A DNA stretch of 64,000 nucleotides from Escherichia phage KKP 3954. Made by a program: the position numbers and the translations under genes. The notes below the pieces were generated by a model. That model worked only from the letters and a program-made list of their open reading frames with translations. It made no database searches and had not been told where the DNA came from. The first letter of the stretch is position 1. Each line of letters starts with the position of its first letter. Location: the sequence record OR067838.1; one strand, written 5' to 3'. Below, in pieces: positions 4,218 through 41,461 of this stretch.

Positions 4218-4225
4218 TTTTACTC

Positions 4226-6379: not shown

Positions 6380-6387
6380 TTTACCCC

Positions 6388-7305
6388 TTACTCGGTAACG
6401 TCCACACTAATGTTTGCCATTGTCAAAACAGTAAGTGCAGGAATATTGCTCGAATCCAAAACAGGTAATGCATTTTGGGGATTAAGTTTTTTGTATAAAG
6501 CATACAACCCAAAACCACGTAACAACTCTCCAGCGTGGAAGCCAAAGAAGACTCCGTTATCACTATCTGGTCTAGGAGCGGAACTCCAACAGCCATTCAT
6601 AACATGATTAGGACCAAGAACAATATAATTTTCCTGAATAAGTTCAAAACAGCGGTCTGCTACTATTTTAATGTTAGGAATTTCTGAATCATACCCAGCC
6701 ATCCCCATTATAGCACATCCTGCCATAAAGAGCGCAGACATGTGACTTGTAAAGTCATCTACAGGTGCTGCCACTTCTCCGTTGGGATAAAATATTGTTG
6801 GTGTTCTTCCTTCGTTGTTGTCTTGGAACCACTTTAGATAGTTGATCCAGTTTTTACAAACTGTTAAAAGTTTTTCAGGAACTTCTGCCCCTCGTTGTTT
6901 CAGTTCGTATACTGTATGACACGCACAGAAGAATGCTCGTGCTTCATAACCATCCCAAGCTTTATCGTTCCAATGATACATTGTGAACTCATTCTTGTTT
7001 CCGTATTTATGAGCATCCCAACGATCCCAAACATAAGCTTGTGCCATTGGTCCAGGCATCACAGGGGCAAACTTATTATAAAACCACATTTGTGAATCAT
7101 ATAAAAAGTCTATACTGTTGTTCATACGAACCCAATCAATATCTCTCCCTTTAAAACAATATAAGGATGGGTATTGATAACCTGGGTAAGGAATACCACG
7201 CCAACCGTCATATAAGGCTGTGTTAGGATCACTGATATTGGAAAATGGAATGATTCCTGGAGTATAATTCAAACTGTTAAGTTTGTAGTCCAGTATTGTA
7301 TACAA
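6388..7305 (-). CDS. tail-associated protein, glycoside-hydrolase-like
   Basis: 305 aa, Trp/Tyr-rich, resembles alpha/alpha-barrel glycosidase fold by composition only. Confidence 0.3.
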   Translation of the reverse strand: MYTILDYKLNSLNYTPGIIPFSNISDPNTALYDGWRGIPYPGYQYPSLYCFKGRDIDWVRMNNSIDFLYDSQMWFYNKFAPVMPGPMAQAYVWDRWDAHKYGNKNEFTMYHWNDKAWDGYEARAFFCACHTVYELKQRGAEVPEKLLTVCKNWINYLKWFQDNNEGRTPTIFYPNGEVAAPVDDFTSHMSALFMAGCAIMGMAGYDSEIPNIKIVADRCFELIQENYIVLGPNHVMNGCWSSAPRPDSDNGVFFGFHAGELLRGFGLYALYKKLNPQNALPVLDSSNIPALTVLTMANISVDVTE

Positions 7306-29053: not shown

Positions 29054-29132
29054 TGGAGGCGGGAATTGGATTTGAACCAATGATCTCCAGCATATGAAAC
29101 TGGCGAGGACGACCAGACTCCTCTATCCCGCT
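29054..29132 (-). tRNA. tRNA-Met (CAU), CCA encoded
   Basis: Manual fold: acceptor AGCGGGA/UCCCGCC, D-stem GAGG/CCUC, anticodon loop UUCAUAU, T-arm AUUGG-UUCAAAU-CCAAU. Confidence 0.6.
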
Positions 29133-29139
29133 ATCATGT

Positions 29140-29208
29140 ATCCCGTGCTGGATTCGAACCAGCGTCACAATAAATTGTGGATCTCTTATCCTGTAAGTCT
29201 AACGGGAA
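29140..29208 (-). ncRNA. tRNA-like RNA with aberrant anticodon arm
   Basis: Canonical T-arm GCUGG-UUCGAAU-CCAGC and 6-bp acceptor, but the middle folds only as CACAA-UUUA-UUGUG; 69 nt. Confidence 0.35.
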
Positions 29209-29210
29209 AC

Positions 29211-29284
29211 TGGTTGTTTCGACAAGAATCGAACTTGTGTCTCACGATTATCAGTCGTGGGTTCTACCATTGAACTACGAAACA
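29211..29284 (-). tRNA. tRNA-Ile (GAU)
   Basis: Perfect 7-bp acceptor, D-arm GUUC/GAAC, anticodon loop CUGAUAA, T-loop UUCGAUU, CCA encoded. Confidence 0.7.
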
Positions 29285-29290
29285 TTTAAT

Positions 29291-29367
29291 TGGTCGGAAT
29301 TGCAGGATTCGAACCTGCGACCCTACGCTCCCAAAGCGTATGCTCTACCAAACTGAGCTAAATTCCG
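29291..29367 (-). tRNA. tRNA-Pro (UGG)
   Basis: 7-bp acceptor, D-arm GCUC/GAGC, anticodon stem UACGC/GCGUA, loop UUUGGGA. Confidence 0.7.
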
Positions 29368-29372
29368 TTATA

Positions 29373-29448
29373 TGGCTGGTCTGTCTGGATTTGAACCAAA
29401 CCTACGACAGTCAAAGTGTCGTGTGCTACCGGACTACACTACAAACCA
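29373..29448 (-). tRNA. tRNA-Gln (UUG)
   Basis: Acceptor with one G-U, anticodon stem CGACA/UGUCG, loop CUUUGAC. Confidence 0.65.
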
Positions 29449-29546
29449 ATAAATCATTTAATGAAGGGCAACCAGAAGAAGTGTGAGAGAAGGAGAAAAC
29501 CATGAGTAAAAGAGAAAGTTTTCTGGCAACCCTTTATTAAATAATT

Positions 29547-29620
29547 TGGAGCGTTCTACGAGGATCGAACTCGTGCCGCCGACTTGGAAGGACGGAATGC
29601 TACCGCTACACCAAGAACGC
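29547..29620 (-). tRNA. tRNA-Gly (UCC)
   Basis: 7-bp acceptor, T-arm ACGAG-UUCGAUC-CUCGU, anticodon loop CUUCCAA. Confidence 0.65.
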
Positions 29621-29933
29621 CCTATATATTTACTATACTACATTTTACTATTTGTTGTCAAGACTTTTATTGATTGGGACAGTGACGAGTATCCCGTTGG
29701 GTGACTAGCCCTACGTTCGGTAAGCTAACTTAAAATAATACAAAACCAAAGTCAAATATTATTCTTCGTTGCTGTCGATGGGAGAGCCGCTTCTCATTTT
29801 GCCCCATCCAACCCTACTCCGGTCAAGTTTCGGGTGACTCTTTTTGTGATCAACACAATACTAAGAACACTGTCTTTCGAGCAGACCTTGTGCACAGGAA
29901 CGACGATCAATCACAATGCTCTTAATGTTGTGT

Positions 29934-30008
29934 TGGTGCTCCCACACTGAATCGAACAGAGATCCACGGATTACAAAACCGTTGTAATAGCCATTATACT
30001 ATAGGAGC
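29934..30008 (-). tRNA. tRNA-Thr (UGU)
   Basis: Acceptor GCUCCUA/UGGGAGC, anticodon loop UUUGUAA; D-stem weak. Confidence 0.5.
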
Positions 30009-30015
30009 AATGCTG

Positions 30016-30091
30016 GGACTCGGCAGGATTCGATACCTGCAATTCCAGAAGCCTATTGGCGACTGGGGGTTTACCTTAACTCTACAAGTCC
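30016..30091 (-). ncRNA. tRNA-like RNA with 8-nt T-loop and no canonical anticodon arm
   Basis: Perfect 7-bp acceptor and T-stem GCAGG/CCUGC with loop UAUCGAAU; interior gives only short tetraloop hairpins. Confidence 0.3.
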
Positions 30092-30098
30092 ATAATTC

Positions 30099-30184
30099 TG
30101 GCGATGAGTATAGGATTCGAACCTATATTGTTCTTTCGAACACGGATTAACAGTCCGCCGCTTAAACCGTTCAGCCAACTCATC
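30099..30184 (-). tRNA. class-II-shaped tRNA with anticodon GUU (Asn anticodon on Ser-like body)
   Basis: 7-bp acceptor, G73, anticodon stem GCGGA/UCCGU, loop CUGUUAA, long variable arm GUUC-GAAA-GAAC. Confidence 0.45.
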
Positions 30185-30190
30185 TTAATT

Positions 30191-30278
30191 TGGTGGTGAG
30201 TGATGGAGTCGAACCACCCGAATCGCAATGATAACAGATTTACAGTCTGCCCCGCTACCCCTACGGAATTAACTCACC
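30191..30278 (-). tRNA. tRNA-Tyr (GUA)
   Basis: 88 nt with long variable arm, anticodon loop CUGUAAA, A73, CCA encoded. Confidence 0.6.
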
Positions 30279-30409
30279 TAAATACTAATATTTAAATTCT
30301 TTTTAAAATAGCCAGTGTTCGCACCACTAACTATGAGTTATCGGTAAGATGGTGGGGGGCTATCTTCCGAAAGTTTACTCTATTAAAGTAAGCTACATTA
30401 AAAAGAACT

Positions 30410-30495
30410 TGGCGGTAGATGTAGGACTCGAACCTACACGCCGTTTCCGACTACAGTTTAGCAAACTGTCGTGGCTACCATTTCACCAATCTACC
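30410..30495 (-). tRNA. tRNA-Ser (GCU)
   Basis: Long variable arm GUCG-GAAA-CGGC, anticodon loop UUGCUAA, G73. Confidence 0.65.
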
Positions 30496-30500
30496 TAATC

Positions 30501-30591
30501 TGGCGGAAGGAGGGAGAGTCGAACTCCCAAGGCTCTTTCAAGCTCGGCGGTTTTCAAGACCGTTTTCGTCGCCACATCGATTTGCCCTTCC
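30501..30591 (-). tRNA. tRNA-Ser (UGA)
   Basis: 91 nt, long variable arm, anticodon loop CUUGAAA, T-arm GGGAG-UUCGACU-CUCCC; position 8 is C. Confidence 0.5.
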
Positions 30592-30825
30592 ATACTTATA
30601 ATCTAACATAAAATAATGATTGTTGTCAATACTTTTTTAAAACATTTTACCATGAATGGTGACTCCACCAACCCCCGTTCTCCACGAACGGTGCTCTTCG
30701 AGCATTTATGTCTTCTAATATAACCGTGGCCTTTGTTTATAATGTCTGACATACTTGCCTCATTCTCTGCCACCATGATCAGTAGTGGGTTCAAATCACT
30801 TGAGCTAATTCATGTTAAAATGTTC

Positions 30826-30900
30826 TGGTGTCTTTACAAGGAATCGAACCTTGACTAAGAGTTTAGAAGACTCCTGTGCTATCCATTACACCATAAAGAC
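30826..30900 (-). tRNA. tRNA-Arg (UCU)
   Basis: Perfect acceptor, D-arm GUGU/GCAC, anticodon loop CUUCUAA. Confidence 0.7.
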
Positions 30901-30902
30901 GT

Positions 30903-30977
30903 TGGTGGCCCTGGCTGGTTTCGATCCAGCTACCTATCGGTTATGAGCCGACAGCTCTCCCATTGAGCTACAGGGCC
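30903..30977 (-). tRNA. tRNA-Met or Ile2 (CAU)
   Basis: Perfect acceptor GGCCCUG/CAGGGCC, D-arm GCUC/GAGC, anticodon loop CUCAUAA. Confidence 0.6.
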
Positions 30978-32433: not shown

Positions 32434-32757
32434 ATGAGATTTACAAGACAAGAGGTGGTTGTGCTGGACGAAGCAATGACAATGATCGTCTTTTACTATG
32501 AGGATATCTTCTGTGCAGCATATCATTTAAATGACATTCAGATTGAATGGCAGCAGATAGCATTCCTGTTGGACAAGAGTAATCATTTAGATGGCTTTGA
32601 GTATTTGGAGTGGGATGGTGCAAAGGAAGTTAAAATTGTAGGGTTAAATCACGATCAGATTGTTGACATGCAATGTAAGTTGTGTCATTATCAGTTCTCA
32701 AATAAAGTTAAACTCGAAAGGCAACTGGAGGTAGTTAAAGATGATAGCACTAATTAG
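32434..32757 (+). CDS. hypothetical early protein
   Basis: 107-aa ORF with AGGAGG RBS. Confidence 0.3.
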   Translation: MRFTRQEVVVLDEAMTMIVFYYEDIFCAAYHLNDIQIEWQQIAFLLDKSNHLDGFEYLEWDGAKEVKIVGLNHDQIVDMQCKLCHYQFSNKVKLERQLEVVKDDSTN

Positions 32758-32853
32758 TGAGCATCCAATCCTGGCAACAATTGTTCTGATTTTCGCCATT
32801 TGTGTGGTTCACGATGTTCTGGTAAGCTATTTTGACAACAAAGGAGGTAAGAA

Positions 32854-33048
32854 ATGAAAGACGTTATTCAAATGGTATTCCGTGTCACCCTGGATGATAT
32901 TCATGTTGTTAAAGGCACCCAGAACTACACAGAAGCGAAAGAACATTTCCTGGAATGGGTTGAGACGTTGAAGACACAAAACGTTTCCTACAACCGTGTG
33001 ACGCTCACTGGCGACCATACCCCAATCATGGAGTACGTAAAGAAATGA
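32854..33048 (+). CDS. hypothetical early protein
   Basis: 64-aa ORF with RBS. Confidence 0.3.
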   Translation: MKDVIQMVFRVTLDDIHVVKGTQNYTEAKEHFLEWVETLKTQNVSYNRVTLTGDHTPIMEYVKK

Positions 33049-33284
33049 GCAAATATCCAATTACAGGTGTAACCTATTCTTGTGTATCCAAAGGTGGCTT
33101 ATATACGGTCGTGGAATTTCCAAAACCTGCCGGAATATCTAAAGTGTTTGATCCTGTTGTTATCTATGAAGATCTTAGAACAGGTCAACGTTATTGGAGA
33201 TTTGTGAATGACTTTTTAGATCGTATGGAGGTAGTAAGTGGCGAAAACACCGAAGAAGTTATCAAAGCCAAAGAACGTTACTAA
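33045..33284 (+). CDS. hypothetical early protein
   Basis: 79-aa ORF, translationally coupled. Confidence 0.3.
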   Translation: MSKYPITGVTYSCVSKGGLYTVVEFPKPAGISKVFDPVVIYEDLRTGQRYWRFVNDFLDRMEVVSGENTEEVIKAKERY

Positions 33285-33591
33285 GAAACCGAAAAACGAG
33301 GTTCTCAAAGTAGCCAAATCAGTTCCTAAGAAAGATAAATTTGATACGGAGGCATTCGTCTTTGACACACCAATCGAGAAGATTGAAGAAGCGTTGCAAC
33401 GTCTTGAGGAGCAGGAGGCAGATCCAATGGCTGAACCACTCACGGCAGACCAAATTTATTGGTGGGGAATATGGACTTTGCAACTACCAGAAGCAAAAAG
33501 AAGAGGAATGACTTCAGTTCCTACTTGCGCAAAAGAAGCGGCTGTGTTAGGTTTGTATGAGAAATCTAAAAAGAGGAGCAAAAAGAAATGA
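33238..33591 (+). CDS. lysine-rich basic protein, possible nucleic-acid binder
   Basis: 117 aa, Lys-rich at both termini. Confidence 0.3.
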   Translation: MAKTPKKLSKPKNVTKKPKNEVLKVAKSVPKKDKFDTEAFVFDTPIEKIEEALQRLEEQEADPMAEPLTADQIYWWGIWTLQLPEAKRRGMTSVPTCAKEAAVLGLYEKSKKRSKKK

Positions 33592-33869
33592 TCAAGACTT
33601 TCCTGAAGTGTGTAAAAGCAACAGATAATGAGTGGTACTCTGGATTATTCACTGCTGGCAAGAAATACGAGATCCTCAACGGGACAGGCAAGAAGTTTTC
33701 TCTCGTTATAAACGATGAAGGCACGAAGCAAATGGTATTTGCTGAAAGTTCTGTTTATGGTATTTTTGAAGTAGTGCAAGAAGGCTCTCCAATGATTCTG
33801 GAGTATCATGGCACTAATAAACCATATACTGCTATGGATGTTATCAACAATAAGAGGAATGCAAAATGA
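33588..33869 (+). CDS. hypothetical early protein
   Basis: 93-aa ORF. Confidence 0.3.
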   Translation: MIKTFLKCVKATDNEWYSGLFTAGKKYEILNGTGKKFSLVINDEGTKQMVFAESSVYGIFEVVQEGSPMILEYHGTNKPYTAMDVINNKRNAK

Positions 33870-34048
33870 TTTTACTTTATTCCGGTAAGGCGAAATACAT
33901 GCAAGGTGTTAAACGTGTAGAGGTTACTAAGACAGTAACAATCGGAAAATCTTTTATAGTTTATTATTTCATTATTAATGGGAAGGAGTATGCTGTAGCA
34001 AAGACCTTGGTTGATAATGGTAAAACGTGGAAAGTGGAGGCACTATGA
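33866..34048 (+). CDS. hypothetical early protein
   Basis: 60-aa ORF. Confidence 0.25.
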   Translation: MILLYSGKAKYMQGVKRVEVTKTVTIGKSFIVYYFIINGKEYAVAKTLVDNGKTWKVEAL

Positions 34049-34251
34049 TCCCTGTAGCTGGGTGGGTGGTATTGGCAACACTTAATGGGAATGTTACTGT
34101 GGAGACTAAAACCATCTTCAAAGCACCAGAAGATTGCTATAACTCCTTGGTAACTTGGCCTCGTGACGAGGATGATAAGGCAGAGTATCAGTGTTTTTAC
34201 ATTGAGGGTAAGCCTGTAGAATTTGAGGTTAAAGTGAAGGAGGAAAAATGA
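34027..34251 (+). CDS. hypothetical early protein
   Basis: 74-aa ORF. Confidence 0.3.
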   Translation: MESGGTMIPVAGWVVLATLNGNVTVETKTIFKAPEDCYNSLVTWPRDEDDKAEYQCFYIEGKPVEFEVKVKEEK

Positions 34252-34718
34252 GAATTAAAGTAACTAAAGCTTACGATGATAACCCGAAGTTTATCTCTTT
34301 GAATAAGAGTTATGGTGTCGAAAACGGCGATGAGTTCGAGGTTATCGATCTTTTTGAGGACCACGGTTATATTGTCAAAGCCCCAATCACAGAGCAGGCT
34401 ATTATCATCTTACGCACAGAGGCTGTTGAGGTAGGTTCTGATGAGCCTCAATATGACAGCCCATACATGACAGAGTGGATTGTGGCTGTAGATGTTGGAG
34501 GCAGGGTTTCTGTATTGAAAGCTCCTAATCTCCATCCTAGTTTTACAGAGAACGGTAAGACAGCTTTGGATTATGGGTTGCCAGAAGATGTTGAGAATAC
34601 ACCGCCAGGTATGTACCGTTGGATTTGCTCTTTCCATGAAGAGAAGGATTGGGAATCAGGGCTTGTTGATGATTGGCATTTTGAAGTGGAAAGTTCTTTT
34701 TTAATCATGCCAGCTTAA
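34248..34718 (+). CDS. hypothetical early protein
   Basis: 156-aa ORF. Confidence 0.3.
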   Translation: MRIKVTKAYDDNPKFISLNKSYGVENGDEFEVIDLFEDHGYIVKAPITEQAIIILRTEAVEVGSDEPQYDSPYMTEWIVAVDVGGRVSVLKAPNLHPSFTENGKTALDYGLPEDVENTPPGMYRWICSFHEEKDWESGLVDDWHFEVESSFLIMPA

Positions 34719-34728
34719 AGGAGGTTAT

Positions 34729-35073
34729 ATGAAAGTTTGGATAGATGATATGCGGAACCCAGCCGACTATGGACAGGAAGATGCAATTTGGTTTAAAACG
34801 TCACAAGAAGCTATGGCCTTTCTCAATGATCCTGCTAAACTGTATCGAAGAGTAACCGAGTGGTCTTTTGACAATGATTTAGGTATGGAGTCAGACCAAG
34901 ATGGGTATGATGTTTTCCTGCACCTGGAAGAACTTCTGGCGTTTGGTAAACCTTGCTTTGGTTCACCTACCATTTTCGTGCATACTTCTAATCCCGCCGC
35001 TGGGGATAAATTCATGCTTGCAAAAGAATCCATGCTGCGTTATGGTATTAAAATGATTCGTGTGCACTACTAA
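34729..35073 (+). CDS. hypothetical early protein
   Basis: 114-aa ORF. Confidence 0.3.
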   Translation: MKVWIDDMRNPADYGQEDAIWFKTSQEAMAFLNDPAKLYRRVTEWSFDNDLGMESDQDGYDVFLHLEELLAFGKPCFGSPTIFVHTSNPAAGDKFMLAKESMLRYGIKMIRVHY

Positions 35074-35232
35074 GGAGAGAACATGCATCATTTGGTTTGG
35101 TCGGAACAAGAAGAGGACGAAGGTTACTTTATCTACCGAGAAGAAGAGGATTGGCCCGACACAAGTAATGATCTTTTACTTCCAGACACTAGTTTTTTCG
35201 AGGATAACTTAAGAGAGGAGGATTAGGAAACA

Positions 35233-35589
35233 ATGAGTGGTATTGAAAACAACATTTGTTACCAACCTCTTACCTGGATGGGTGAGGGTCATTATGCGCA
35301 ACGTGTTATCGTCTGTGCTGCAAATAAGTATATTTTGAATAATGGTGAAGAGTTAATTATTCCTTGTGTTCGACATGCAAATCCTGTACTATATGCACAG
35401 TTAAACGTGTTGAAAGAAGCAGGTGTAATCAACAAAACTTTGTGCACACCAGATAATCAAGGCTTTATCGATCAGTATTACAATTGGTGGAGTCGTGCGG
35501 ATGCTTACATCATCGCGGAAAATGCTGACCAGATCGACCATGAGCGTAATGGTCACGACCATGAATTATTTAGCGAGGGATTATACTAA
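35233..35589 (+). CDS. hypothetical protein
   Basis: 118-aa ORF with RBS GGAGGA. Confidence 0.3.
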   Translation: MSGIENNICYQPLTWMGEGHYAQRVIVCAANKYILNNGEELIIPCVRHANPVLYAQLNVLKEAGVINKTLCTPDNQGFIDQYYNWWSRADAYIIAENADQIDHERNGHDHELFSEGLY

Positions 35590-36140
35590 TGTTTATTACA
35601 AGCGATTTGCATTTTATGCATAAACGTATTCGAGAGTTTGCTCCTGAATATCGTCCCTGGGAAGATATGGACCACATGACAGAAGCCTTGATCGAAGCAT
35701 GGAACAAATGTGCTACTACTCCTGGTGTTAAGATGTGGCATTTGGGCGACTTCTGTTTCGGAACTGAAGAAGATACCCGTAAAATTGCTTCCCGTCTCCA
35801 AGGAGATATCACCTACTGTGTTGGGAACCATGACTACAGCAAACACCGAGAAGTGCTTGCAGAGTATGGAGAAGTGGTGTATTATGACGAAGTGAAATAT
35901 CAGAAGCTGTTCTTCGTCTTAAGCCATTACCCTATGGCCTCCTGGAATAAACAAGGTCGTGGATCAATCATGCTACACGGGCATTCCCACGGATCTTTCC
36001 CTGATGAAGCTTATGGTAAAATGTTAGATGTGGGTTGGGATGCACACGGAAAAATCTTGCATTTTGATGAGATAATTTCTATGATGAGTAAACGAGATAT
36101 CGTGACTGTAGACCATCACAAAATAATCAAAGGAGAGTAA
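35589..36140 (+). CDS. calcineurin-like metallophosphoesterase
   Basis: Motifs SDLHF, GDFCFG, GNHD, GHSHG. Confidence 0.6.
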   Translation: MFITSDLHFMHKRIREFAPEYRPWEDMDHMTEALIEAWNKCATTPGVKMWHLGDFCFGTEEDTRKIASRLQGDITYCVGNHDYSKHREVLAEYGEVVYYDEVKYQKLFFVLSHYPMASWNKQGRGSIMLHGHSHGSFPDEAYGKMLDVGWDAHGKILHFDEIISMMSKRDIVTVDHHKIIKGE

Positions 36141-36141
36141 T

Positions 36142-37074
36142 GTGACTAAATTTAATTGCGACGATTTGGTTGAAAAAGGTTTAGTTCATAAGAAAACATA
36201 TAAAGAAGGAGAGTATTCTGGTCTATCTGTTCTTAAGTATAAGAACAAAGTTTTCTGGGATAACTTATGGAGCATTGATTCTCGTCTTCTAGAATGTCGC
36301 GGAATCGTTGTTGATGCTGATGACAATGTTGTTATTTGGCCTTTCACTAAGATTTTTAATCGTTTTGAGAATGGCACAGATCTACCATTGGATGAACTTG
36401 TAGATGTGGTTCGTAAAGTAAATGGTTTTATGGCCTCTGTAGGTGTATATAAAGGTCAACTTATTGTATCGACAACAGGAAGCCTTGAATCAGATTTTGC
36501 AAGTATTGCAAAGAATCGTATTGTTTCAGAGTGTGATGACATAGAACATTTCATCAAATGGACAGAGAGTGCAAAAGCAACTTTCCTTTTTGAAATCTGT
36601 GATCCTTCTGATCCGCATATTGTCGAAGAAGAACCAGGTGCATACTTAATTGGTGCCAGAATTCAAAATCCTGATGGGACAAGTTTTATGTTACCTGAAG
36701 GTGCTCTTGATGGAATTGCTTCTGTCACCAAATTTAAGCGTCCTGAAGTTCATCCAATGGTTAAGTTTTCAGATGTTGTTGAAATGTCTAAACATTGTAA
36801 ACACGAAGGGTTTATTGTTCGTGAAACAAACTGTCCGTTTAACTTACTTTTAAAGATTAAGTCACCATACTATCTTACTAAGAAGTTTCTTATGCGTGGT
36901 GGAGATAAGAAGTGGGATCTTATTTGGGATAATCCAAAAAATGCCAAACAAATTGTTGACGAAGAATATTACACTTTGTTAGAATGGATTCGAAATAATT
37001 TTACGAAGACTCAATGGGCTGCTTTAAATCAGCAAGAGCGACGTGAAGAAATCGAAAACTTCTTTGGAGGATAA
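36142..37074 (+). CDS. RNA ligase, T4 Rnl1-like
   Basis: LLECRGIVVD and motif I KVNG, EGFIVRE, LLLKIKSPYY parallel T4 RnlA blocks. Confidence 0.6.
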   Translation: MTKFNCDDLVEKGLVHKKTYKEGEYSGLSVLKYKNKVFWDNLWSIDSRLLECRGIVVDADDNVVIWPFTKIFNRFENGTDLPLDELVDVVRKVNGFMASVGVYKGQLIVSTTGSLESDFASIAKNRIVSECDDIEHFIKWTESAKATFLFEICDPSDPHIVEEEPGAYLIGARIQNPDGTSFMLPEGALDGIASVTKFKRPEVHPMVKFSDVVEMSKHCKHEGFIVRETNCPFNLLLKIKSPYYLTKKFLMRGGDKKWDLIWDNPKNAKQIVDEEYYTLLEWIRNNFTKTQWAALNQQERREEIENFFGG

Positions 37075-37479
37075 ATGAAACAACTTATCATTTTACGTGG
37101 TGTTTCAGGTGCTGGTAAATCTACAGTAGCAGAAATTATTTCTGAAGGTTATTGGCCTATCTGCGAGGCAGATCAATATCATTACACAGAAAGTGGTGTT
37201 TACGATTGGAAGCCAGAAAATGTAGGTAAAGCACACGCATGGTGTCAGAGTATTGTTCGTGATGCTATGGCGTCTAATCTTAACAAGATTATTGTTTCTA
37301 ACACTTCAACCACAGAGAAAGAACTTAAACCTTATCTAGCTCTTGCTGAAGAGTTTGGTTATCAAGTTATCTCTTTAGTTGTTGAAAATAGGCACGGTAA
37401 TGATTCAATTCACGAGGTTCCACAATATATCCGTGATCAGCAAGAGAAACGTCTTCGTGGTTCACTTAAACTTCAATAA
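37075..37479 (+). CDS. polynucleotide 5'-kinase (P-loop)
   Basis: Walker A GVSGAGKST, IVSNTS block like T4 Pnk kinase domain. Confidence 0.55.
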   Translation: MKQLIILRGVSGAGKSTVAEIISEGYWPICEADQYHYTESGVYDWKPENVGKAHAWCQSIVRDAMASNLNKIIVSNTSTTEKELKPYLALAEEFGYQVISLVVENRHGNDSIHEVPQYIRDQQEKRLRGSLKLQ

Positions 37480-37488
37480 GGAGAAATA

Positions 37489-37815
37489 ATGCAGATTTAT
37501 ACAGATGATCGTAAATATGAGACAATTTTAGATGAAGATACTGGACGAATTACCGTTCTCCGTCACGGTGAAGAGTGGCGTGATGAAACGGGAGACAATT
37601 ATATCTTGTCTCTGATTCATCTTATTGAACAAATGCGTGATGATTACGCTGAACTGCATTATGAAAATGAGGCGAATAAAGTAAAATTTGAAAATGAATT
37701 AGAAGAGAAAGAATCTGAAATGGTATATCTAAAAGAAGAGATCTCCCGTTTGGAGGAAGAGATTGATGCTCTTCAGGAAGAGATTTACGAACTCAACAGC
37801 GAACTGAATGCTTAA
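37489..37815 (+). CDS. coiled-coil protein
   Basis: 108 aa, Glu-rich heptad C-terminus. Confidence 0.3.
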   Translation: MQIYTDDRKYETILDEDTGRITVLRHGEEWRDETGDNYILSLIHLIEQMRDDYAELHYENEANKVKFENELEEKESEMVYLKEEISRLEEEIDALQEEIYELNSELNA

Positions 37816-37824
37816 GGATGAATT

Positions 37825-38013
37825 ATGAAAAAAGATATCGTTGTTGATTGGCTGACTTGTCCTTGTGGCAGTCATGAAATCTCTGTAAACACAGAAGGTG
37901 ATAAACATTATTTGTTCTATGGTGATAAAATCACTTGCCTTTCTTGCGGACGCATTGGTATTATAGAAACAGATGATTGCTGTGTTTTTGAATCTTGGGA
38001 TGAAGATGAATGA
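37825..38013 (+). CDS. zinc-ribbon protein
   Basis: CPCG and CLSCG pairs in 62 aa. Confidence 0.3.
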   Translation: MKKDIVVDWLTCPCGSHEISVNTEGDKHYLFYGDKITCLSCGRIGIIETDDCCVFESWDEDE

Positions 38014-38231
38014 GTACTGCATTTTATGTTCGTAGCGGAGACGAGGATTTTCTAGCTACTTTTGATGACGGTGATCTTGAAGATATGTATGAAGATATGC
38101 TTGACTATGCCAAAGGGCAAGGTTTCACAAGCATTGATTATATGTTGGCAACATCTACAACGTTACTCGACGCAGATTTGGATGAAGTGTGTAACAGATT
38201 GAAAATTTCAGTTTTTAAATGGGAGGACTAA
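38010..38231 (+). CDS. acidic small protein
   Basis: 73-aa Asp/Glu-rich ORF. Confidence 0.25.
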   Translation: MSTAFYVRSGDEDFLATFDDGDLEDMYEDMLDYAKGQGFTSIDYMLATSTTLLDADLDEVCNRLKISVFKWED

Positions 38232-39346
38232 TGCAACAAACAAATCAAACGCTGTATGGTAAAGATTCAAAAGGAAAACTTAAACAGTGGACAGTGTATA
38301 CAGATGGTGCAGTTGTTACTGTAGCTCATGGAAGGGTAGGTGGAAAAATCACAGAAAAATCTTATACAGCAGAAGCAAAAAACATTGGTCGTTCCAATGA
38401 AACAACACCGGAAGAACAAGCTGAACTTGAAGCTTTTGCCAAATGGACAAAACAGTTAAAGAATGGCTATTATAAAACAAAAGAAGAAGCTGAAAACCAT
38501 GTTCCTTCTACACCAATGAAATGCCAGGATTATAAAGATTATCCTGAAAGGGTTGTGTTCCCTGGTTATGCACAATACAAACTGAACGGGTTACGTTCTA
38601 TGATTAACATGAAAGGGGAGTGTTTATCAAAAGCTGGGGAAGTGTATAACCTGCCACCTCATTGGGAAGGTATTCCAAACTTTATTAGTGAAGTTGTTGG
38701 TCATCCTCTTGATGGTGAAGTGTTTGCTGGGTTAGGTGTCCTTAGTCTGCAACAAATTAACAGTGCCTGGAAGAAGCATAATGCAAATACACCTTTGCTG
38801 AATTATTACGTATACGATATTCCAGTTCCAGATCTACCGTTTGAAAAACGTGTTGATGTTCTGGCTGCTCTTAAGGCAGTAGTGGAAGATTATGGTCTTG
38901 ATGAGCTTATTTGTGTAGTTCATACAGAGTATATTGAAAACCAAGAACAGTTTGATGCTTTCTATGAAAAAGCTTTACTTGAAAAGGCTGAAGGTGTAGT
39001 ATATCGTAATGCTCGCGGAGTTTACGAATTTGATAAACGTTCTTATGACGTTATTAAACGTAAGCCTCGCCACACCCTTGAAGTTAAAGTAACAAATTCA
39101 AAAAGTGATAAAAATGGCGATGGAGTGTTGACAGGTGAGATGGAAAATGGTAAAGTAGTCGAATTCTTAATGCGTAAAGATGCTCATGAGACTATCAATT
39201 ATCGTAAAGCAGAGAATGCTTCTACCTTGATTAATCAGTTCGTTGAAATAGAGTATGAAGAATTTTCAGATGAAGGTATTCCAACAAAACCTGTTGGTGT
39301 TCGTATTCGAGAAATGATCCCAGGCACTTGGGAACCAGCAGAATAA
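38219..39346 (+). CDS. ATP-dependent DNA ligase
   Basis: Motif I KLNGLR, motif IV EGVVYR, downstream KRK. Confidence 0.55.
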   Translation: MGGLMQQTNQTLYGKDSKGKLKQWTVYTDGAVVTVAHGRVGGKITEKSYTAEAKNIGRSNETTPEEQAELEAFAKWTKQLKNGYYKTKEEAENHVPSTPMKCQDYKDYPERVVFPGYAQYKLNGLRSMINMKGECLSKAGEVYNLPPHWEGIPNFISEVVGHPLDGEVFAGLGVLSLQQINSAWKKHNANTPLLNYYVYDIPVPDLPFEKRVDVLAALKAVVEDYGLDELICVVHTEYIENQEQFDAFYEKALLEKAEGVVYRNARGVYEFDKRSYDVIKRKPRHTLEVKVTNSKSDKNGDGVLTGEMENGKVVEFLMRKDAHETINYRKAENASTLINQFVEIEYEEFSDEGIPTKPVGVRIREMIPGTWEPAE

Positions 39347-39355
39347 GGAGGAAAA

Positions 39356-39550
39356 ATGTTCTTAGCCATTCTAATCGTTTTCAGTGTGCTTTCTTTTTAT
39401 TGTATGAATGCTTCTGAAAACTTTCCTAAGAATTCAAAGAAAAGAACCGTATGTATTGCGATTGATTCATGTATGTCTGGAGTTGGGTATGCGGTAGTTT
39501 CTTGTTTCTTAGCTTATCATTGTGCAAAATACCTGGAGGCATTTTTATGA
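39356..39550 (+). CDS. small membrane protein
   Basis: 64 aa, hydrophobic. Confidence 0.25.
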   Translation: MFLAILIVFSVLSFYCMNASENFPKNSKKRTVCIAIDSCMSGVGYAVVSCFLAYHCAKYLEAFL

Positions 39551-39729
39551 TAATTTTAGCAACAATTCTTATGATGTTGATAGCCATTGCTATTGTAATT
39601 CTGGCATCTTTTCCGGCGGATAAATGGTATTTCAATATTCCACGTATGCTTGTTTTCGGTTTCGCAGGAATTTACATGGGTGAGACTGTAGTAAATATTA
39701 GCAACTTTCTAGAAAGCTATTTTAAATAA
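39547..39729 (+). CDS. small membrane protein
   Basis: ATG overlaps previous stop (ATGA); two hydrophobic helices. Confidence 0.3.
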   Translation: MIILATILMMLIAIAIVILASFPADKWYFNIPRMLVFGFAGIYMGETVVNISNFLESYFK

Positions 39730-39738
39730 GGAGTTATA

Positions 39739-40464
39739 ATGATCGAGAATTTTTTTAAAGATATTAAATTCGATACTGAATTTTTCAAAAATGCAGCAAA
39801 GCACGTGATTGACTGGAATGCCAAAGCACGAGGTGGTGAACAACCGGAATTCACTCAAGAGCTATTTATGTCCCAAATCGGGTTCGTTCGTGAAGAGCTT
39901 AAAGAGTATGAAACAGCCGCGAAAGTAAACGATCATGTAGAACTCTTGGATGCAGCAGCGGATATTTTTGTAGTATCAAGTTATCTGACTTACATGTTCT
40001 TTGGTGAAGAACATACGATGAATTTCTTGGACTATGCTGTAGGCGATGTTTTTACTCCAACTGTGTATACTGATTTTGATGCTTTGGAACAAACATTTAC
40101 AGAGCCAGTTCAAATGGCACTAATGGCTGCTGGTATTATGCGTATGTCTCGTGACACTCTAATCCGTTCAAAATATCCAGAAAAGAAAGTTATTAAAGAG
40201 GTATTGAAAAGTAATGATTCCAAGTATCCAACTAAACAACAGTTGCTGAAAACTTGGAAAACTTCAGATATCGATTCAGCCATTGCACAAGAATGCACTG
40301 CAATTGAAGAACGAAATGCCAATCGTCCAGAAGGAGCATACACTGGTGTTCATGCTGTTTATAATGAAAAACAGAAAGTGTATGTGTTCTTTGATGATAA
40401 AGGTAAGATCATGAAACCATCGACCTTTGTCAAACCTAATATTGCAGGTATTATTAATAAGTAA
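39739..40464 (+). CDS. MazG-like NTP pyrophosphohydrolase
   Basis: EELKEYETAAKVNDHVELLDAAADIFVV resembles the MazG EExxE...D motif. Confidence 0.35.
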   Translation: MIENFFKDIKFDTEFFKNAAKHVIDWNAKARGGEQPEFTQELFMSQIGFVREELKEYETAAKVNDHVELLDAAADIFVVSSYLTYMFFGEEHTMNFLDYAVGDVFTPTVYTDFDALEQTFTEPVQMALMAAGIMRMSRDTLIRSKYPEKKVIKEVLKSNDSKYPTKQQLLKTWKTSDIDSAIAQECTAIEERNANRPEGAYTGVHAVYNEKQKVYVFFDDKGKIMKPSTFVKPNIAGIINK

Positions 40465-40520
40465 TGTTGTAAGCCGCCCTTTATGGGCGGTAATGTGAGA
40501 TGTATTAAATAGGAGGAAAC

Positions 40521-41399
40521 ATGTTTGTAAAATCTTTTAAATCCGCTCTGCCTATGGTTGTTGGTGACAATGCTTCTGTAGCATCCCTTAACAGCATTAC
40601 AGATATTCCTCTGGAATTTGTAACAGCAGAAGGCTCCCAGTCACACACTATCGGTCTTGTTCGTTTCGAAGATGACTCTAAATTTGTAAAAGAGTTTTCA
40701 GATCTTGAACTGCTTAATGTAGGTCAATCTGTGAAGAAGGTAGATAAAAAGAAAGTTAAACGTATTCTGAATGAACGTCTAGAAGAAATGCGTCAGGACA
40801 TGGAGAGCGAAGGTAAAGAGTTTTATGTCGATAAAGAAGTAGTCAAAGCAATGAAGGAAGATATTGAATTTGCACTATTGCCTGAAACAGAACCTGAAGA
40901 TTTCTTTAACTATGTTGTCTTGGATAAAACTACGAATCTTCTTTATGTTCTTAATGGAAGTAAAAAGGTTGCAGAAGAGATTACTTCTTTCCTCCGTTCC
41001 GTTCTGGGGACTTTCCCTTCGGTAGGTTTTAGTGTGCACGAAGAAGCTATTGTAAAAGGTTTTGGTGAATTGCTGGAGAATCACGAAGCAGATCGTATTA
41101 CTCTCGGAAATTATATCAAAATGGAGGATAGCGAGGGCGTTGTTGTTTGGAGTAAAGAATCTCTATACGAGTCTAAAGCTGTCGAACTAAAAGAAGATGG
41201 TAAAGATGTGGTTGCAATTGGTCTTGAATATGACGGTGTTGTAGATTTTGTAGTGGATAAAGAGTTTAAACTTTCTAAACTACGTTTTCCGAAATATTTT
41301 GCAGACGAAGAAGGTAGTATTGAAGCTTCAGTTCTTCTGTGCTTCAATGAGATTCGAGGTCTGATGGAAGATTTAACCAAAGCAACAATCCTTAAATAA
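40521..41399 (+). CDS. RdgC-like recombination-associated protein
   Basis: LLYVLNGSKKVAEEITSFLRSVLGTFP parallels RdgC; about 300 aa, acidic. Confidence 0.4.
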   Translation: MFVKSFKSALPMVVGDNASVASLNSITDIPLEFVTAEGSQSHTIGLVRFEDDSKFVKEFSDLELLNVGQSVKKVDKKKVKRILNERLEEMRQDMESEGKEFYVDKEVVKAMKEDIEFALLPETEPEDFFNYVVLDKTTNLLYVLNGSKKVAEEITSFLRSVLGTFPSVGFSVHEEAIVKGFGELLENHEADRITLGNYIKMEDSEGVVVWSKESLYESKAVELKEDGKDVVAIGLEYDGVVDFVVDKEFKLSKLRFPKYFADEEGSIEASVLLCFNEIRGLMEDLTKATILK

Positions 41400-41403
41400 G
41401 TTC

Positions 41404-41432
41404 TTGACTTGCGGGATTAGTTATGATATTAT
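41404..41432 (+). promoter_or_regulatory. sigma70-like promoter
   Basis: TTGACT, 17-nt spacer, TATTAT. Confidence 0.45.
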
Positions 41433-41461
41433 GCCTACCTACTTAATGAGGTAGGCTTTTT
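41433..41461 (+). terminator. rho-independent terminator
   Basis: GCCTACCT/AGGTAGGC hairpin plus TTTTT. Confidence 0.45.

Follow-up and report, generated by a model that had tools for sequence, protein, structure and literature searches.

The window analysed here, a 64,000-nucleotide stretch of Escherichia phage KKP 3954, carries a cassette that we read, with a probability of roughly 70%, as a phage-encoded split pathway for RNA end healing and end sealing. Its products are a metallophosphoesterase (MPE), an Rnl1-family RNA ligase and a stand-alone P-loop kinase. The observations behind this reading are the identities of the genes, their intact active-site motifs, their fold neighbours, their linkage in other phages, fusions, and their displacement by a T4-type Pnkp.

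In the proposed pathway, host or competitor ribonucleases (anticodon nucleases or other metal-independent RNases) would cut tRNA or other RNAs of translation. The cyclic phosphate left behind would be opened by a cyclic-phosphate-processing receiver (cRec) protein and/or the MPE, and the MPE would then remove the phosphomonoester so formed, leaving a 3'-OH. The 134-aa P-loop kinase would move the gamma-phosphate of ATP onto the 5'-OH, after which the ligase, adenylylated on Lys92, would activate the 5'-phosphate and seal the break. Translation would thus be restored during infection, complementing the phage's own tRNA genes. We infer what the substrates are, how cRec and MPE share the work, and that the pathway serves counter-defence.

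The window belongs to a Phapecoctavirus and shares 98.9% identity with phage Schickermooser, where all three genes are already named in the GenBank record. Iyer et al. in 2022 predicted RNA repair for the rV5-type neighbourhood (PMC9503650), and cRec-RNA ligase linkage has been described along with a place for calcineurin-like phosphatases in the RNA repair of phages (PMC7824862). The cassette is already known computationally, from annotation and literature, as a prediction; no biochemical or genetic study of cRec, MPE, ligase or kinase was found in the literature searched.

Layout of the cassette and its neighbours

The original prediction placed three adjacent, coupled and separate ORFs at 35589-37479, and the exact coordinates are borne out, on the plus strand. 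The MPE gene (35589..36140, 183 aa) overlaps the end of the upstream ORF p118 in a TAATG, 1 nt separates its stop from the GTG start of the ligase gene (36142..37074, 310 aa), and the ATG of the kinase gene (37075..37479, 134 aa) abuts the ligase stop. Each start is preceded by a GGAG-type ribosome-binding site. Tight packing is common to the whole plus strand between ~32.8 and 41.4 kb, so that coupling alone is weak evidence. The cassette probably belongs to a long operon, made up of small packed genes, from ~32.7 to 41.4 kb. A consensus scan gives a weak outline of the probable transcription unit (32663..41456, plus strand), running from a promoter-like site at 32663-32691 to a terminator-like hairpin at 41433-41456 that coincides with a terminator annotated in Schickermooser; counts of promoter-like sites were not above those in shuffled controls. 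A promoter or terminator dedicated to the trio was looked for and not found.

The description as a three-gene cassette holds for the trio itself and overlooks a fourth component, the cRec gene (34729..35073, plus strand, 114 aa). The cRec product matches PF20274 cREC_REC (E=6.7e-17, 62.4 bits, cut-off 27) and keeps the acidic receiver-type pocket, with D6 D7, D48-N49-D50, S87-N88-P89 and K94 invariant among 7 homologues. Its predicted task is the opening of 2',3'-cyclic phosphate ends or the processing of ADPr>P; catalysis by cRec has likewise been put forward as a prediction (PMC9503650). The gene is placed between ligase and kinase in relatives L005-L009 and directly 3' of the ligase in the rV5-like phage FV3. 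It belongs to the same neighbourhood as the trio.

Two further ORFs separate cRec from the MPE. A small acidic ORF of 47 aa (35083..35226, plus strand), a hypothetical CDS in Schickermooser, gave tblastn matches in close relatives only (L001, L002, L004) and no match in a family search. The next, p118 (35233..35589, plus strand; phrog_839, E=4e-47), is labelled 'anti-restriction nuclease' in some records. Searches of Pfam, NCBIfam and PDB returned no relative of p118, and just one of the 27 ligase clusters has it next to the ligase. Although its gene is translationally coupled to that of the MPE, we rejected p118 as a core component, since it has no relative in these databases and is not conserved with the ligase.

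Small ORFs surround the cassette, with DNA-ligase and exonuclease genes nearby. An ATP-dependent DNA ligase (38219-39346; PF01068 E=2.4e-9, phrog_114 E=4.6e-74) is encoded in the same operon 1.1 kb downstream of the cassette, between the kinase gene and a gene for MazG.

Active sites and fold relatives of the three enzymes

The assignments made originally (MPE, T4 Rnl1-like ligase, P-loop kinase) hold at the level of sequence, profile and fold, and the catalytic residues of the trio are intact except for three substitutions. The MPE, a binuclear enzyme of the COG4186/aq_1665-like type, matches Metallophos PF00149 (24.9 bits, cut-off 21.5) as well as PF12850, phrog_547 'phosphoesterase' (E=6.5e-56) and PDB entry 1xm7 (E=3e-6). 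The superfamily signature (DxH, GD, GNH[DE], H, GHxH) is represented by D6-L-H8, G53-D54, G79-N80-H81-D82, H113 and G131-H132-S-H134, and across 27 diverse homologues no metal or phosphate ligand varies. The phosphatase is calcineurin-type and not HAD, as first proposed. A passage in PMC3675462 cites Keppetipola and Shuman for a link between the GNH histidine and 2',3'-cyclic phosphodiesterase activity; this residue, H81, is present and invariant in the MPE family.

Searched against the PDB, a profile of the 27 MPE homologues retrieved aq_1665 (1xm7, E=8e-24), GpdQ (E=2e-4) and two weaker entries, and no match to the CthPnkp phosphatase or lambda phosphatase. We predict a role in RNA 3'-end healing, as a 2',3'-cyclic phosphodiesterase and/or a 3'/2'-phosphomonoesterase. 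Several features of the MPE count against the pathway reading. Its G-D-F-C-F-G motif is without the Arg of GDxxDR (Arg237 of CthPnkp); aq_1665, the sole solved member of the subfamily, is of orphan function; and the next PDB relative, GpdQ, is a promiscuous glycerophosphodiesterase. The COG4186/aq_1665-type family comprises more than 4,000 clusters at 50% identity (E<=1e-10). Assignment of the MPE as a DNA-repair endonuclease of the PdeM type was rejected at 16.8 bits against a cut-off of 150 (E=0.0034).

The product of 36142-37074 is assigned by its sequence to the Rnl1 family of ATP-dependent ligases and is predicted to seal RNA. It covers the full model (1-227) of RNA_lig_T4_1 PF09511 (E=3.5e-15, 56.9 bits, cut-off 28.3), matches phrog_562 (E=1.6e-69), and has an Rnl1 fold as its nearest solved structure. 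Nucleotidyltransferase motifs I (Lys of KxxG), III (Glu), IV (EG) and V (KxK) are found as K92-V-N94-G95, E151, E222-G223 and K238/K240, which do not vary among 46 homologues and correspond to K99/G102, E159, E227/G228 and K240/K242 of T4. Upstream of motif I, the invariant R53 and K70 and the at least 90% conserved F72 align with T4 R54, K75 and F77; Wang, Ho and Shuman reportedly established in 2003 that Arg54, Lys75 and Phe77 are Rnl1-specific essential residues. Two features of the ligase count against the pathway reading. Thr112, which sits inside an invariant S110-T111-T112-G113 motif, aligns with the essential Lys119 of T4 Rnl1, and the C-terminal helical region is about half as long as the T4 tRNA-specificity domain. 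The tail after motif V measures ~65 aa (helices 242-307) versus ~120 aa in T4, and the hhalign alignment to T4 Rnl1 reaches only T4 residue 266. Scanning bacterial genomes with the ligase alignment yielded only 4 loci; the family is essentially phage-restricted.

The kinase matches AAA_33 PF13671 (E=2.4e-10), phrog_2071 (E=2e-56) and phrog_505 'polynucleotide kinase' (E=2.7e-8). Its Walker A motif (GxxxxGK[ST]) reads G9-VSGAG-K15-S16, with G12, G14 and K15 invariant in 32 homologues. In the T4 enzyme, Asp35 activates the 5'-OH, Arg38 contacts the phosphate of the 5'-terminal nucleotide and Arg126 of the lid contacts ATP. The invariant D33 of the phage kinase aligns with the catalytic Asp35 (A-D-Q-Y-H versus R-D-D-Y-R). 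At the position of the RNA-contacting Arg38 stands His36 (at least 90% conserved), which counts against the pathway reading. An invariant R106 lies in the lid segment; hhalign pairs it with T4 R122, following a gap of 7 residues. The alignment to T4 Pnkp (probability 97.3, E=1.7e-11) covers only T4 residues 1-149, and a Pfam search found no HAD domain on the 134-aa protein, which places it outside the T4-type bifunctional Pnkps. Its closest structures are the CthPnkp and T4 polynucleotide kinases, not nucleotide or small-molecule kinases, followed by PSTK (O-phosphoseryl-tRNA kinase) and then by the Pnkp1 kinase of the Pnkp1/Rnl/Hen1 repair complex.

In a rival reading, the cassette would serve counter-signalling or nucleotide metabolism. 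Here, the MPE would degrade cyclic (oligo)nucleotide or ADPr-derived immune signals, the kinase would act on nucleotides together with MazG, and adjacency to the ligase would reflect a shared anti-defence island, not one pathway. Among functionally characterised proteins in the PDB, GpdQ indeed comes closest to the MPE profile, MazG is encoded in the same operon, and some phage calcineurin-like enzymes (T5 A1 type) are predicted to degrade nucleotide signals (PMC7824862). Iyer et al. name the cassette-type kinase 'nucleotide kinase' only (PMC9503650), which counts against the pathway reading. We consider this rival unlikely.

Linkage, fusions and displacement in other phages

Our healing-and-sealing reading is supported by comparison across 80 IMG/VR loci and 2 GenBank loci (82 in total), which fall into 27 ligase clusters with ligase identities from 37% to 98%. 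Counting a partner as linked when it lies on the same strand within 7 kb of the ligase, we found the MPE in 76 of the 82 loci (24/27 clusters) and the kinase in 66 (22/27 clusters). Failure to detect the kinase in the remaining 5 clusters counts against the pathway reading. Among control neighbours, the DNA ligase was linked in 9/27 clusters, MazG in 3/27, and all others in at most 2/27. Adjacency of the trio is far beyond chance. The genes occur in at least five orders (MPE-Rnl-Kin, Kin-Rnl-MPE, Rnl-MPE-Kin, MPE-Kin-Rnl and Kin-MPE-Rnl), and the trio is also present in named phages of Vequintavirus, Pakpunavirus and Saclayvirus. At one locus (L076), a second RNA ligase adjoins the first.

Fused proteins display related combinations. 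The MPE is joined to a PF09414 RNA ligase in P0243 and to HAD_SAK_2, the HAD domain of Swiss-army-knife RNA repair proteins, in P0267 and P0271, and phrog_8238 aligns to the kinase with its N-terminus and to the ligase with its C-terminus. In Streptomyces phage Karimac, a ligase of the same family lies beside a kinase-HAD Pnkp (AAA_33 + HAD_PNKP), and no MPE was found near it. In the Streptomyces phages, the T4-type kinase-HAD Pnkp takes the place of kinase and MPE. Because of the linkage in 24/27 and 22/27 clusters, the shuffled orders, the fusions and the Pnkp replacement, the trio can be regarded, at the level of comparative genomics, as a real functional unit. Conserved linkage with shuffled order, MPE fusions and Pnkp displacement, together with recurrent tRNA co-location and, in one lineage, a neighbouring GGQ release-factor gene, lend support to the healing-and-sealing function proposed at the outset.

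The DNA ligase, which recurs near the RNA ligase in a third of the clusters and shares the operon in the window, could also suggest that the cassette processes DNA ends. Kinase and MPE would then clean 5'-OH/3'-phosphate DNA ends for this downstream ligase, and the 'RNA ligase' would have a minor or different part. T4 Pnkp can process DNA ends in vitro, and the MPE has its weak match to PdeM, which is a ligase-associated DNA-repair endonuclease. We consider this very unlikely.

tRNA context and known repair systems

A large tRNA cluster had been reported along with the cassette, and it is real. At 29054..30977 on the minus strand, ARAGORN finds 10 genes and Rfam 11 (adding 30194-30278): Met (two), Ile, Pro, Gln, Gly, Thr, 'Asn', Ser and Arg, plus an unannotated Tyr. 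The cluster lies outside the operon in divergent orientation; that it is 3.75 kb away from the cRec gene, upstream and on the other strand, counts against the pathway reading, as does the absence of tRNA-Lys from the phage's tRNA genes (ARAGORN, Rfam). Among the homologous loci, the ligase has tRNA genes within 7 kb in 42/82 (14/27 clusters; raw counts with no genome-wide null), and in 3 clusters they flank it on both sides. A gene for an RF-1/GGQ release factor lies directly upstream of MPE-Rnl at locus L055, as does a similar GGQ-motif ORF at L062.

The frequent position of the cassette beside or inside phage tRNA clusters would also fit a housekeeping role, in which the enzymes mature phage tRNAs or other transcripts. 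The structural variant of this idea, with the ligase attaching tail fibres like T4 gp63, draws on the T4 label 'RNA ligase and tail fiber protein attachment catalyst', which is copied in many records. The label has been carried over from T4 in name alone; against the T4 RnlA equivalog TIGR02308 (NCBIfam) the ligase scores 24.8 bits versus a cut-off of 242, far below the level set for orthology. No virion gene is annotated in the regions flanking the cassette, which sits amid small ORFs by DNA-ligase and exonuclease genes. ARAGORN and Rfam found no intron-bearing or split tRNA in the window, and a role in tRNA splicing was rejected on this ground. Maturation or tail-fibre attachment is highly improbable as the function of the cassette.

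The pathway reading has its paradigm in T4, where Pnkp (pseT) and Rnl1 (rnlA, gp63) repair tRNA-Lys cut by the anticodon nuclease PrrC. In T4 the phosphatase is a HAD (DxDxT) domain fused to the kinase, whereas the window encodes a separate binuclear MPE and a stand-alone 134-aa kinase with His at the Arg38 position. The ligase differs by Thr at the Lys119 position and by its shorter C-terminal region, cRec is an extra gene, and the genes are contiguous, whereas pseT and rnlA lie 1.4 kb apart. In the bacterial Pnkp/Hen1 system, Clostridium thermocellum Pnkp unites kinase, metallophosphoesterase and ligase in one polypeptide; the window encodes them separately, with the MPE first, the ligase second and the kinase last. 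The MPE is of another subfamily (COG4186/aq_1665), with no profile match to the CthPnkp phosphatase and without the GDxxDR Arg. In contrast to Pnkp/Hen1, the ligase family is confined essentially to phages, and no methyltransferase that could match the Hen1 2'-O-methyltransferase partner was found among the ORFs scanned from 34248 to 40464, none of which is a methyltransferase of any kind.

Trl1, the fungal and plant tRNA ligase, combines ligase, kinase and a 2H cyclic phosphodiesterase in one polypeptide, whereas the ORFs here are separate. Trl1 leaves a 2'-phosphate that Tpt1 removes, and it acts in tRNA splicing. A close counterpart is the rV5/Mydo neighbourhood, where a sirtuin is linked to a tRNA ligase, cREC, kinase, MazG and sometimes a calcineurin-like phosphoesterase (PMC9503650, section 3.7.3). 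The window likewise has a T4-like tRNA ligase, cREC, small kinase, MazG and calcineurin-like phosphoesterase, and the FV3 counterparts are 36-54% identical to its proteins. All genes of the window are co-directional, whereas in FV3 the MPE and kinase genes point away from the ligase gene; in the window, the DNA ligase is placed between kinase and MazG. A tblastn search of the 64 kb with the FV3 sirtuin (E<=0.01) detected no sirtuin, and by gene content the window is a sirtuin-less relative of the rV5/Mydo neighbourhood. The MPE, 'occasional' in Iyer et al. 2022, is nearly universal in the present sample.

The last two observations weaken a Trl1-like or NAD-dependent scheme, in which cRec or MPE would open the cyclic end to a 2'-phosphate, the ligase would seal the 3'-OH,2'-PO4 end in the manner of fungal and plant tRNA ligases, and the 2'-phosphate would be removed later. 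A sirtuin/KptA-type scheme of this kind has been proposed for rV5-like phages. Besides the missing sirtuin, no KptA/Tpt1 was found among the ORFs scanned near the cassette, and the MPE as a near-universal partner suggests direct phosphate removal. We judge the scheme distinctly unlikely.

The healing-and-sealing reading can be taken further, tentatively and at slightly less than even odds. The MPE may represent a large and distinct class of RNA 3'-healing enzymes, apart from HAD, HD, 2H and CthPnkp-type phosphatases, and it may work in a four-protein machine with cRec, a minimal kinase and a short-tailed Rnl1. The substrates would be unlike T4's tRNA-Lys, for instance cuts by other anticodon nucleases or of the HEPN/Cas13 type. 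On this extended reading, myoviruses of ~90-150 kb that infect E. coli, Klebsiella, Pseudomonas, Vibrio and Acinetobacter would be intrinsically resistant to tRNA-cleaving defences.

The concept is not new, as T4 Pnkp/Rnl1 and bacterial Pnkp/Hen1 are its paradigm and comparative genomics foresaw the neighbourhood; the value of the cassette is that of a well-supported target for biochemistry rather than of a discovery. If the pathway reading is true, a function would be assigned to a very large orphan MPE family and the predicted activity of cRec would be put to the test. Several hundred sequenced myoviruses of the therapeutic type (phAPEC8/phi92-like, rV5-like, Pakpunavirus, Saclayvirus and Vibrio phages) would hold a repair kit for RNA cut by defence systems. 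Its presence would matter for predicting host range and for understanding the evasion of tRNA-targeting immunity such as PrrC, RloC, retron-associated nucleases, PARIS and Cas13.

Gene organisation of the cassette

The original prediction of three adjacent and coupled genes at 35589-37479 is reproduced to the nucleotide by the ORF list, which places on the + strand a metallophosphoesterase (MPE; 35589-36140, 183 aa), an RNA ligase (36142-37074, 310 aa, with the same GTG start as in GenBank) and a kinase (37075-37479, 134 aa). In the sequence, the MPE start overlaps the end of the preceding ORF in TAATG, a single nucleotide separates the MPE stop from the ligase GTG, and the kinase ATG abuts the ligase stop with a gap of 0; ribosome-binding sites of the GGAG type are found at the ORFs of the trio. 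Equally dense packing extends across the entire + strand from ~ 32.8 to 41.4 kb. The top promoter-like site lies at 32663-32691, and 41433-41456 forms a strong hairpin terminator that is annotated also in Escherichia phage vB_EcoM_Schickermooser; the trio therefore probably belongs to a long operon made up of small genes rather than being an independent transcription unit. Further downstream, this operon encodes an ATP-dependent DNA ligase (38219-39346, +; called here with a start 12 nt before that in GenBank), followed by a MazG-like pyrophosphohydrolase (39739-40464, +), the latter a member of the published rV5-type neighbourhood (Iyer et al.).

Upstream of the trio, a component absent from the original prediction was detected, a cyclic-phosphate-processing receiver (cRec) domain protein (34729-35073, +; PF20274, E=6.7e-17) with a conserved receiver-type acidic pocket. 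The domain was defined by Iyer et al., who noted that its genes share operons with RNA ligases and predicted a role in resolving 2',3'-cyclic phosphates (PMC7824862). In five related loci, cRec sits in the middle of a ligase - cRec - kinase arrangement, and in the rV5-like phage FV3 its gene lies directly 3' of the ligase. Two ORFs of 47 and 118 aa, confined to close relatives, separate cRec from the MPE; neither fell into a recognisable family in Pfam or NCBIfam, nor did the 118-aa ORF in the PDB. The 118-aa ORF (35233-35589, +; phrog_839) is called 'anti-restriction nuclease' in some GenBank records, and a copy beside the ligase is confined to the closest relatives.

Bases 34700-37500 match Schickermooser over their full length at 98.9% identity, and exceed 95% identity to ~ 45 further Phapecoctavirus records (Stephanstirmvirinae; phAPEC8, ESCO5/13 and others). 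Two near-identical genomes of this genus are deposited as 'Campylobacter phage B15' (MG065650.1) and 'Acinetobacter phage vB_AbaM_ABPW7' (OP562383.1); as members of Phapecoctavirus are coliphages, both host names are probably erroneous or stem from contamination.

Family assignment of the three enzymes

The identities expected for the trio, a calcineurin-type phosphatase, a T4 Rnl1-like ligase and a separate P-loop polynucleotide kinase, all agree with the profile searches. The ligase matches Pfam RNA_lig_T4_1 over its full length (E=3.5e-15) and phrog_562 with E=1.6e-69. In pairwise comparison it resembles T4 Rnl1 weakly; a profile built from 16 homologues covers residues 48-266 of T4 Rnl1 (probability 96.6, E=6e-10). 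The residues equivalent to T4 R54, K75, K99/G102 (motif I), E159, E227/G228 and K240/K242 are invariant in 46 homologues, and F72 (T4 F77) is conserved at 90% or more. The one exception among the T4 residues compared is Lys119, whose counterpart is Thr112 inside an invariant STTG motif. Past motif V, the helical region comprises only ~ 65 residues, and the score against the T4 RnlA equivalog model is 24.8 bits, far below the cut-off of 242 bits. The ligase belongs to the Rnl1 clade without being equivalent to T4 gp63 at the level of an orthologue. In a tblastn search of GenBank phages, 671 records contain its subfamily: Escherichia phages account for 198, Pseudomonas phages for 175, Vibrio phages for 83 and Streptomyces phages for 62, followed by those of Klebsiella, Acinetobacter and others. 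Representative genomes of 185,579 species carried the ligase on only four contigs, of which three belong to metagenome-assembled genomes; the family is therefore essentially phage-borne.

The kinase matches AAA_33 (E=2.4e-10), the 'ATPase' family phrog_2071 (2e-56) and the 'polynucleotide kinase' family phrog_505 (2.7e-8), and lacks a HAD domain. A 32-sequence profile spans the whole kinase domain of T4 Pnkp (residues 1-149) with a probability of 97.3 and E=1.7e-11. Both the P-loop lysine K15 and D33, aligned to the catalytic Asp35 of T4, are invariant, while T4 D85-T86 aligns to N76-T77 and T4 Arg38 is replaced by His36. The lid arginine R106 is also invariant and may be the counterpart of T4 R126; the alignment places it opposite T4 R122 after a 7-residue gap. 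In Acinetobacter phage Acibel004, the 'putative phosphatase' beside the RNA ligase (3863-4291 of that locus) is a homologue of this AAA_33 kinase (Pfam E=1e-5; family HMM E=1.5e-33), and its label is a database mis-annotation.

The MPE gives modest matches to Metallophos and a strong one to phrog_547 (E=6.5e-56). All canonical ligands (D6, H8, D54, N80, H81, H113, H132 and H134) are invariant in 27 homologues of 28-64% identity. In the PDB, its profile finds the uncharacterised Aquifex aq_1665 (1xm7, E=8e-24) and then the promiscuous glycerophosphodiesterase GpdQ (2e-4), and matches neither the CthPnkp phosphatase nor lambda phosphatase. The family is very large, numbering 11,113 cluster representatives (50% identity) at E<=1e-3 and 4,162 at E<=1e-10. 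The MPE is an enzyme of the calcineurin superfamily, and its subfamily, which the Schickermooser note gives as COG4186, is uncharacterised.

Conserved linkage, fusions and tRNA genes

To see whether the trio forms a unit, 80 IMG/VR loci with relatives of the ligase (37-88% identity) and 2 GenBank loci were combined, and the ORFs of these 82 loci (27 ligase clusters at 70% identity) were searched with iterated HMMs, one per window protein. An MPE lies within 7 kb of the ligase in 76 loci (24 clusters) and a kinase in 66 (22 clusters), invariably on the same strand as the ligase. Within the same distance, MazG is present in 13 loci (3 clusters), cRec in 10 (2 clusters) and each other neighbour in at most 4 loci and one cluster. 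The DNA ligase reaches 28 loci (9 clusters); repair of DNA ends together with this neighbour is regarded as a less likely function of the cassette than RNA repair. Five gene orders occur (MPE-Rnl-Kin, Kin-Rnl-MPE, Rnl-MPE-Kin, MPE-Kin-Rnl and Kin-MPE-Rnl), and such persistent linkage with shuffled order is what functionally coupled genes, rather than genes kept together by inherited synteny, typically show. Pseudomonas phage K5 shows the order MPE...ligase-kinase and Acibel004 ligase-kinase...MPE. In Streptomyces phage Karimac, the ligase is paired with a classical T4-type Pnkp (AAA_33 + HAD_PNKP) and no MPE. In this non-orthologous displacement, 'kinase-HAD' stands as the equivalent of 'kinase plus MPE'.

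Fusion proteins lend independent support to the trio as a unit. In one (P0243), an MPE with 53% identity to that of the window is fused to a PF09414 RNA ligase, and in two others (P0267 and P0271) the MPE is joined to the HAD domain known from 'Swiss-army-knife' proteins of RNA repair. The phrog_8238 profile, 737 residues long, matches the kinase with its N-terminus and the ligase with its C-terminus. At one locus (L076), the MPE-Rnl1 pair is directly preceded by a second RNA ligase (3613-4674; PF09414 + PHA02142 OB-fold domain), and one phosphoesterase is thereby flanked by two different ligases.

The FV3 locus (Vequintavirus) reads ligase-cRec-Sir2-MazG with MPE and kinase divergent, its Sir2-like gene (4271-5032) following ligase-cRec as in other rV5-like phages. 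Such a sirtuin would suit a Trl1-like or NAD-dependent route for a 2'-phosphate, which is less likely here, as none was detected in the 64-kb window by tblastn with the FV3 sirtuin (E<=0.01); because rV5-like phages carry a sirtuin and none was detected in this Phapecoctavirus window, the proposed NAD-dependent step is lineage-specific. In K5 (Pakpunavirus), ligase-kinase is followed by genes for PRPP synthetase and nicotinate phosphoribosyltransferase (4346-6891; NAD salvage), another link of the RNA-repair set to NAD metabolism.

The large tRNA cluster anticipated for this phage is present at 29054-30977 on the - strand, opposite the cassette, with 10 genes by ARAGORN and 11 by Rfam. The eleventh (30194-30278, -; Rfam 39 bits), missed by ARAGORN and unannotated in Schickermooser, looks like a class II tRNA-Tyr(GUA) because of its CUGUAAA anticodon loop. 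Some anticodon nucleases are reported to target tRNA-Tyr. The gene labelled tRNA-Asn(GUU) (30099-30184, -) has 86 nt, a long variable arm and a D-arm similar to that of the neighbouring tRNA-Ser(GCU) (30410-30495); it is a class II body with an Asn anticodon, an unusual combination. Across the sample, the ligase has tRNA genes within 7 kb in 42/82 loci and 14/27 clusters, raw counts that are suggestive only; in 3 clusters such genes flank the ligase on both sides, the nearest at 215-290 bp. At one locus (L055), a GGQ/RF-1 peptidyl-tRNA hydrolase-like gene (5948-6376, E=5e-20) directly upstream of MPE-ligase sits among as many as 19 clustered tRNA genes, which suggests that ribosome rescue is coupled to RNA repair. 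A similar ORF at another locus (L062, 2792-3283) matches it in GGQ motif and position.

A proposed split pathway of end healing and sealing

The concept, the gene families and even the type of neighbourhood have been published, and the genes are so annotated: Schickermooser lists a 'putative phosphoesterase or phosphohydrolase', a 'putative RNA ligase' and a 'putative polynucleotide kinase', and another GenBank record names the ligase 'putative RNA ligase/RNA repair'. The window represents a sirtuin-less, co-directional relative of the rV5-type neighbourhood of Iyer et al. As our literature search found no experimental study, the cassette is already known as a prediction. What remains new is the uncharacterised MPE subfamily, cRec, T112 and the short C-terminus of the ligase, and H36 of the kinase.

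On the observed identities, motifs, folds, linkage, fusions and displacement, the best-supported model reads the cassette as a split counterpart of the T4 Pnkp/Rnl1 pathway. We infer the substrates, the order of steps and the division of labour between cRec and MPE as follows: a 2',3'-cyclic phosphate would be converted to a 3'-OH by cRec and/or MPE, the 5'-OH would be phosphorylated by the kinase, and the break would be sealed by the Rnl1-type ligase via Lys92-AMP. Bacterial Pnkp provides a precedent for a metallophosphoesterase in end healing (PMC3675462). Degradation of a nucleotide signal is less likely than this split pathway, as are housekeeping or tail-fibre roles. Modelled on T4/PrrC and on the recent interpretation that phage tRNAs serve as anti-defence devices (PMC10264068; PMC7824862), the biological rationale would be that the cassette, together with the phage tRNAs, counters anticodon nucleases of the host.
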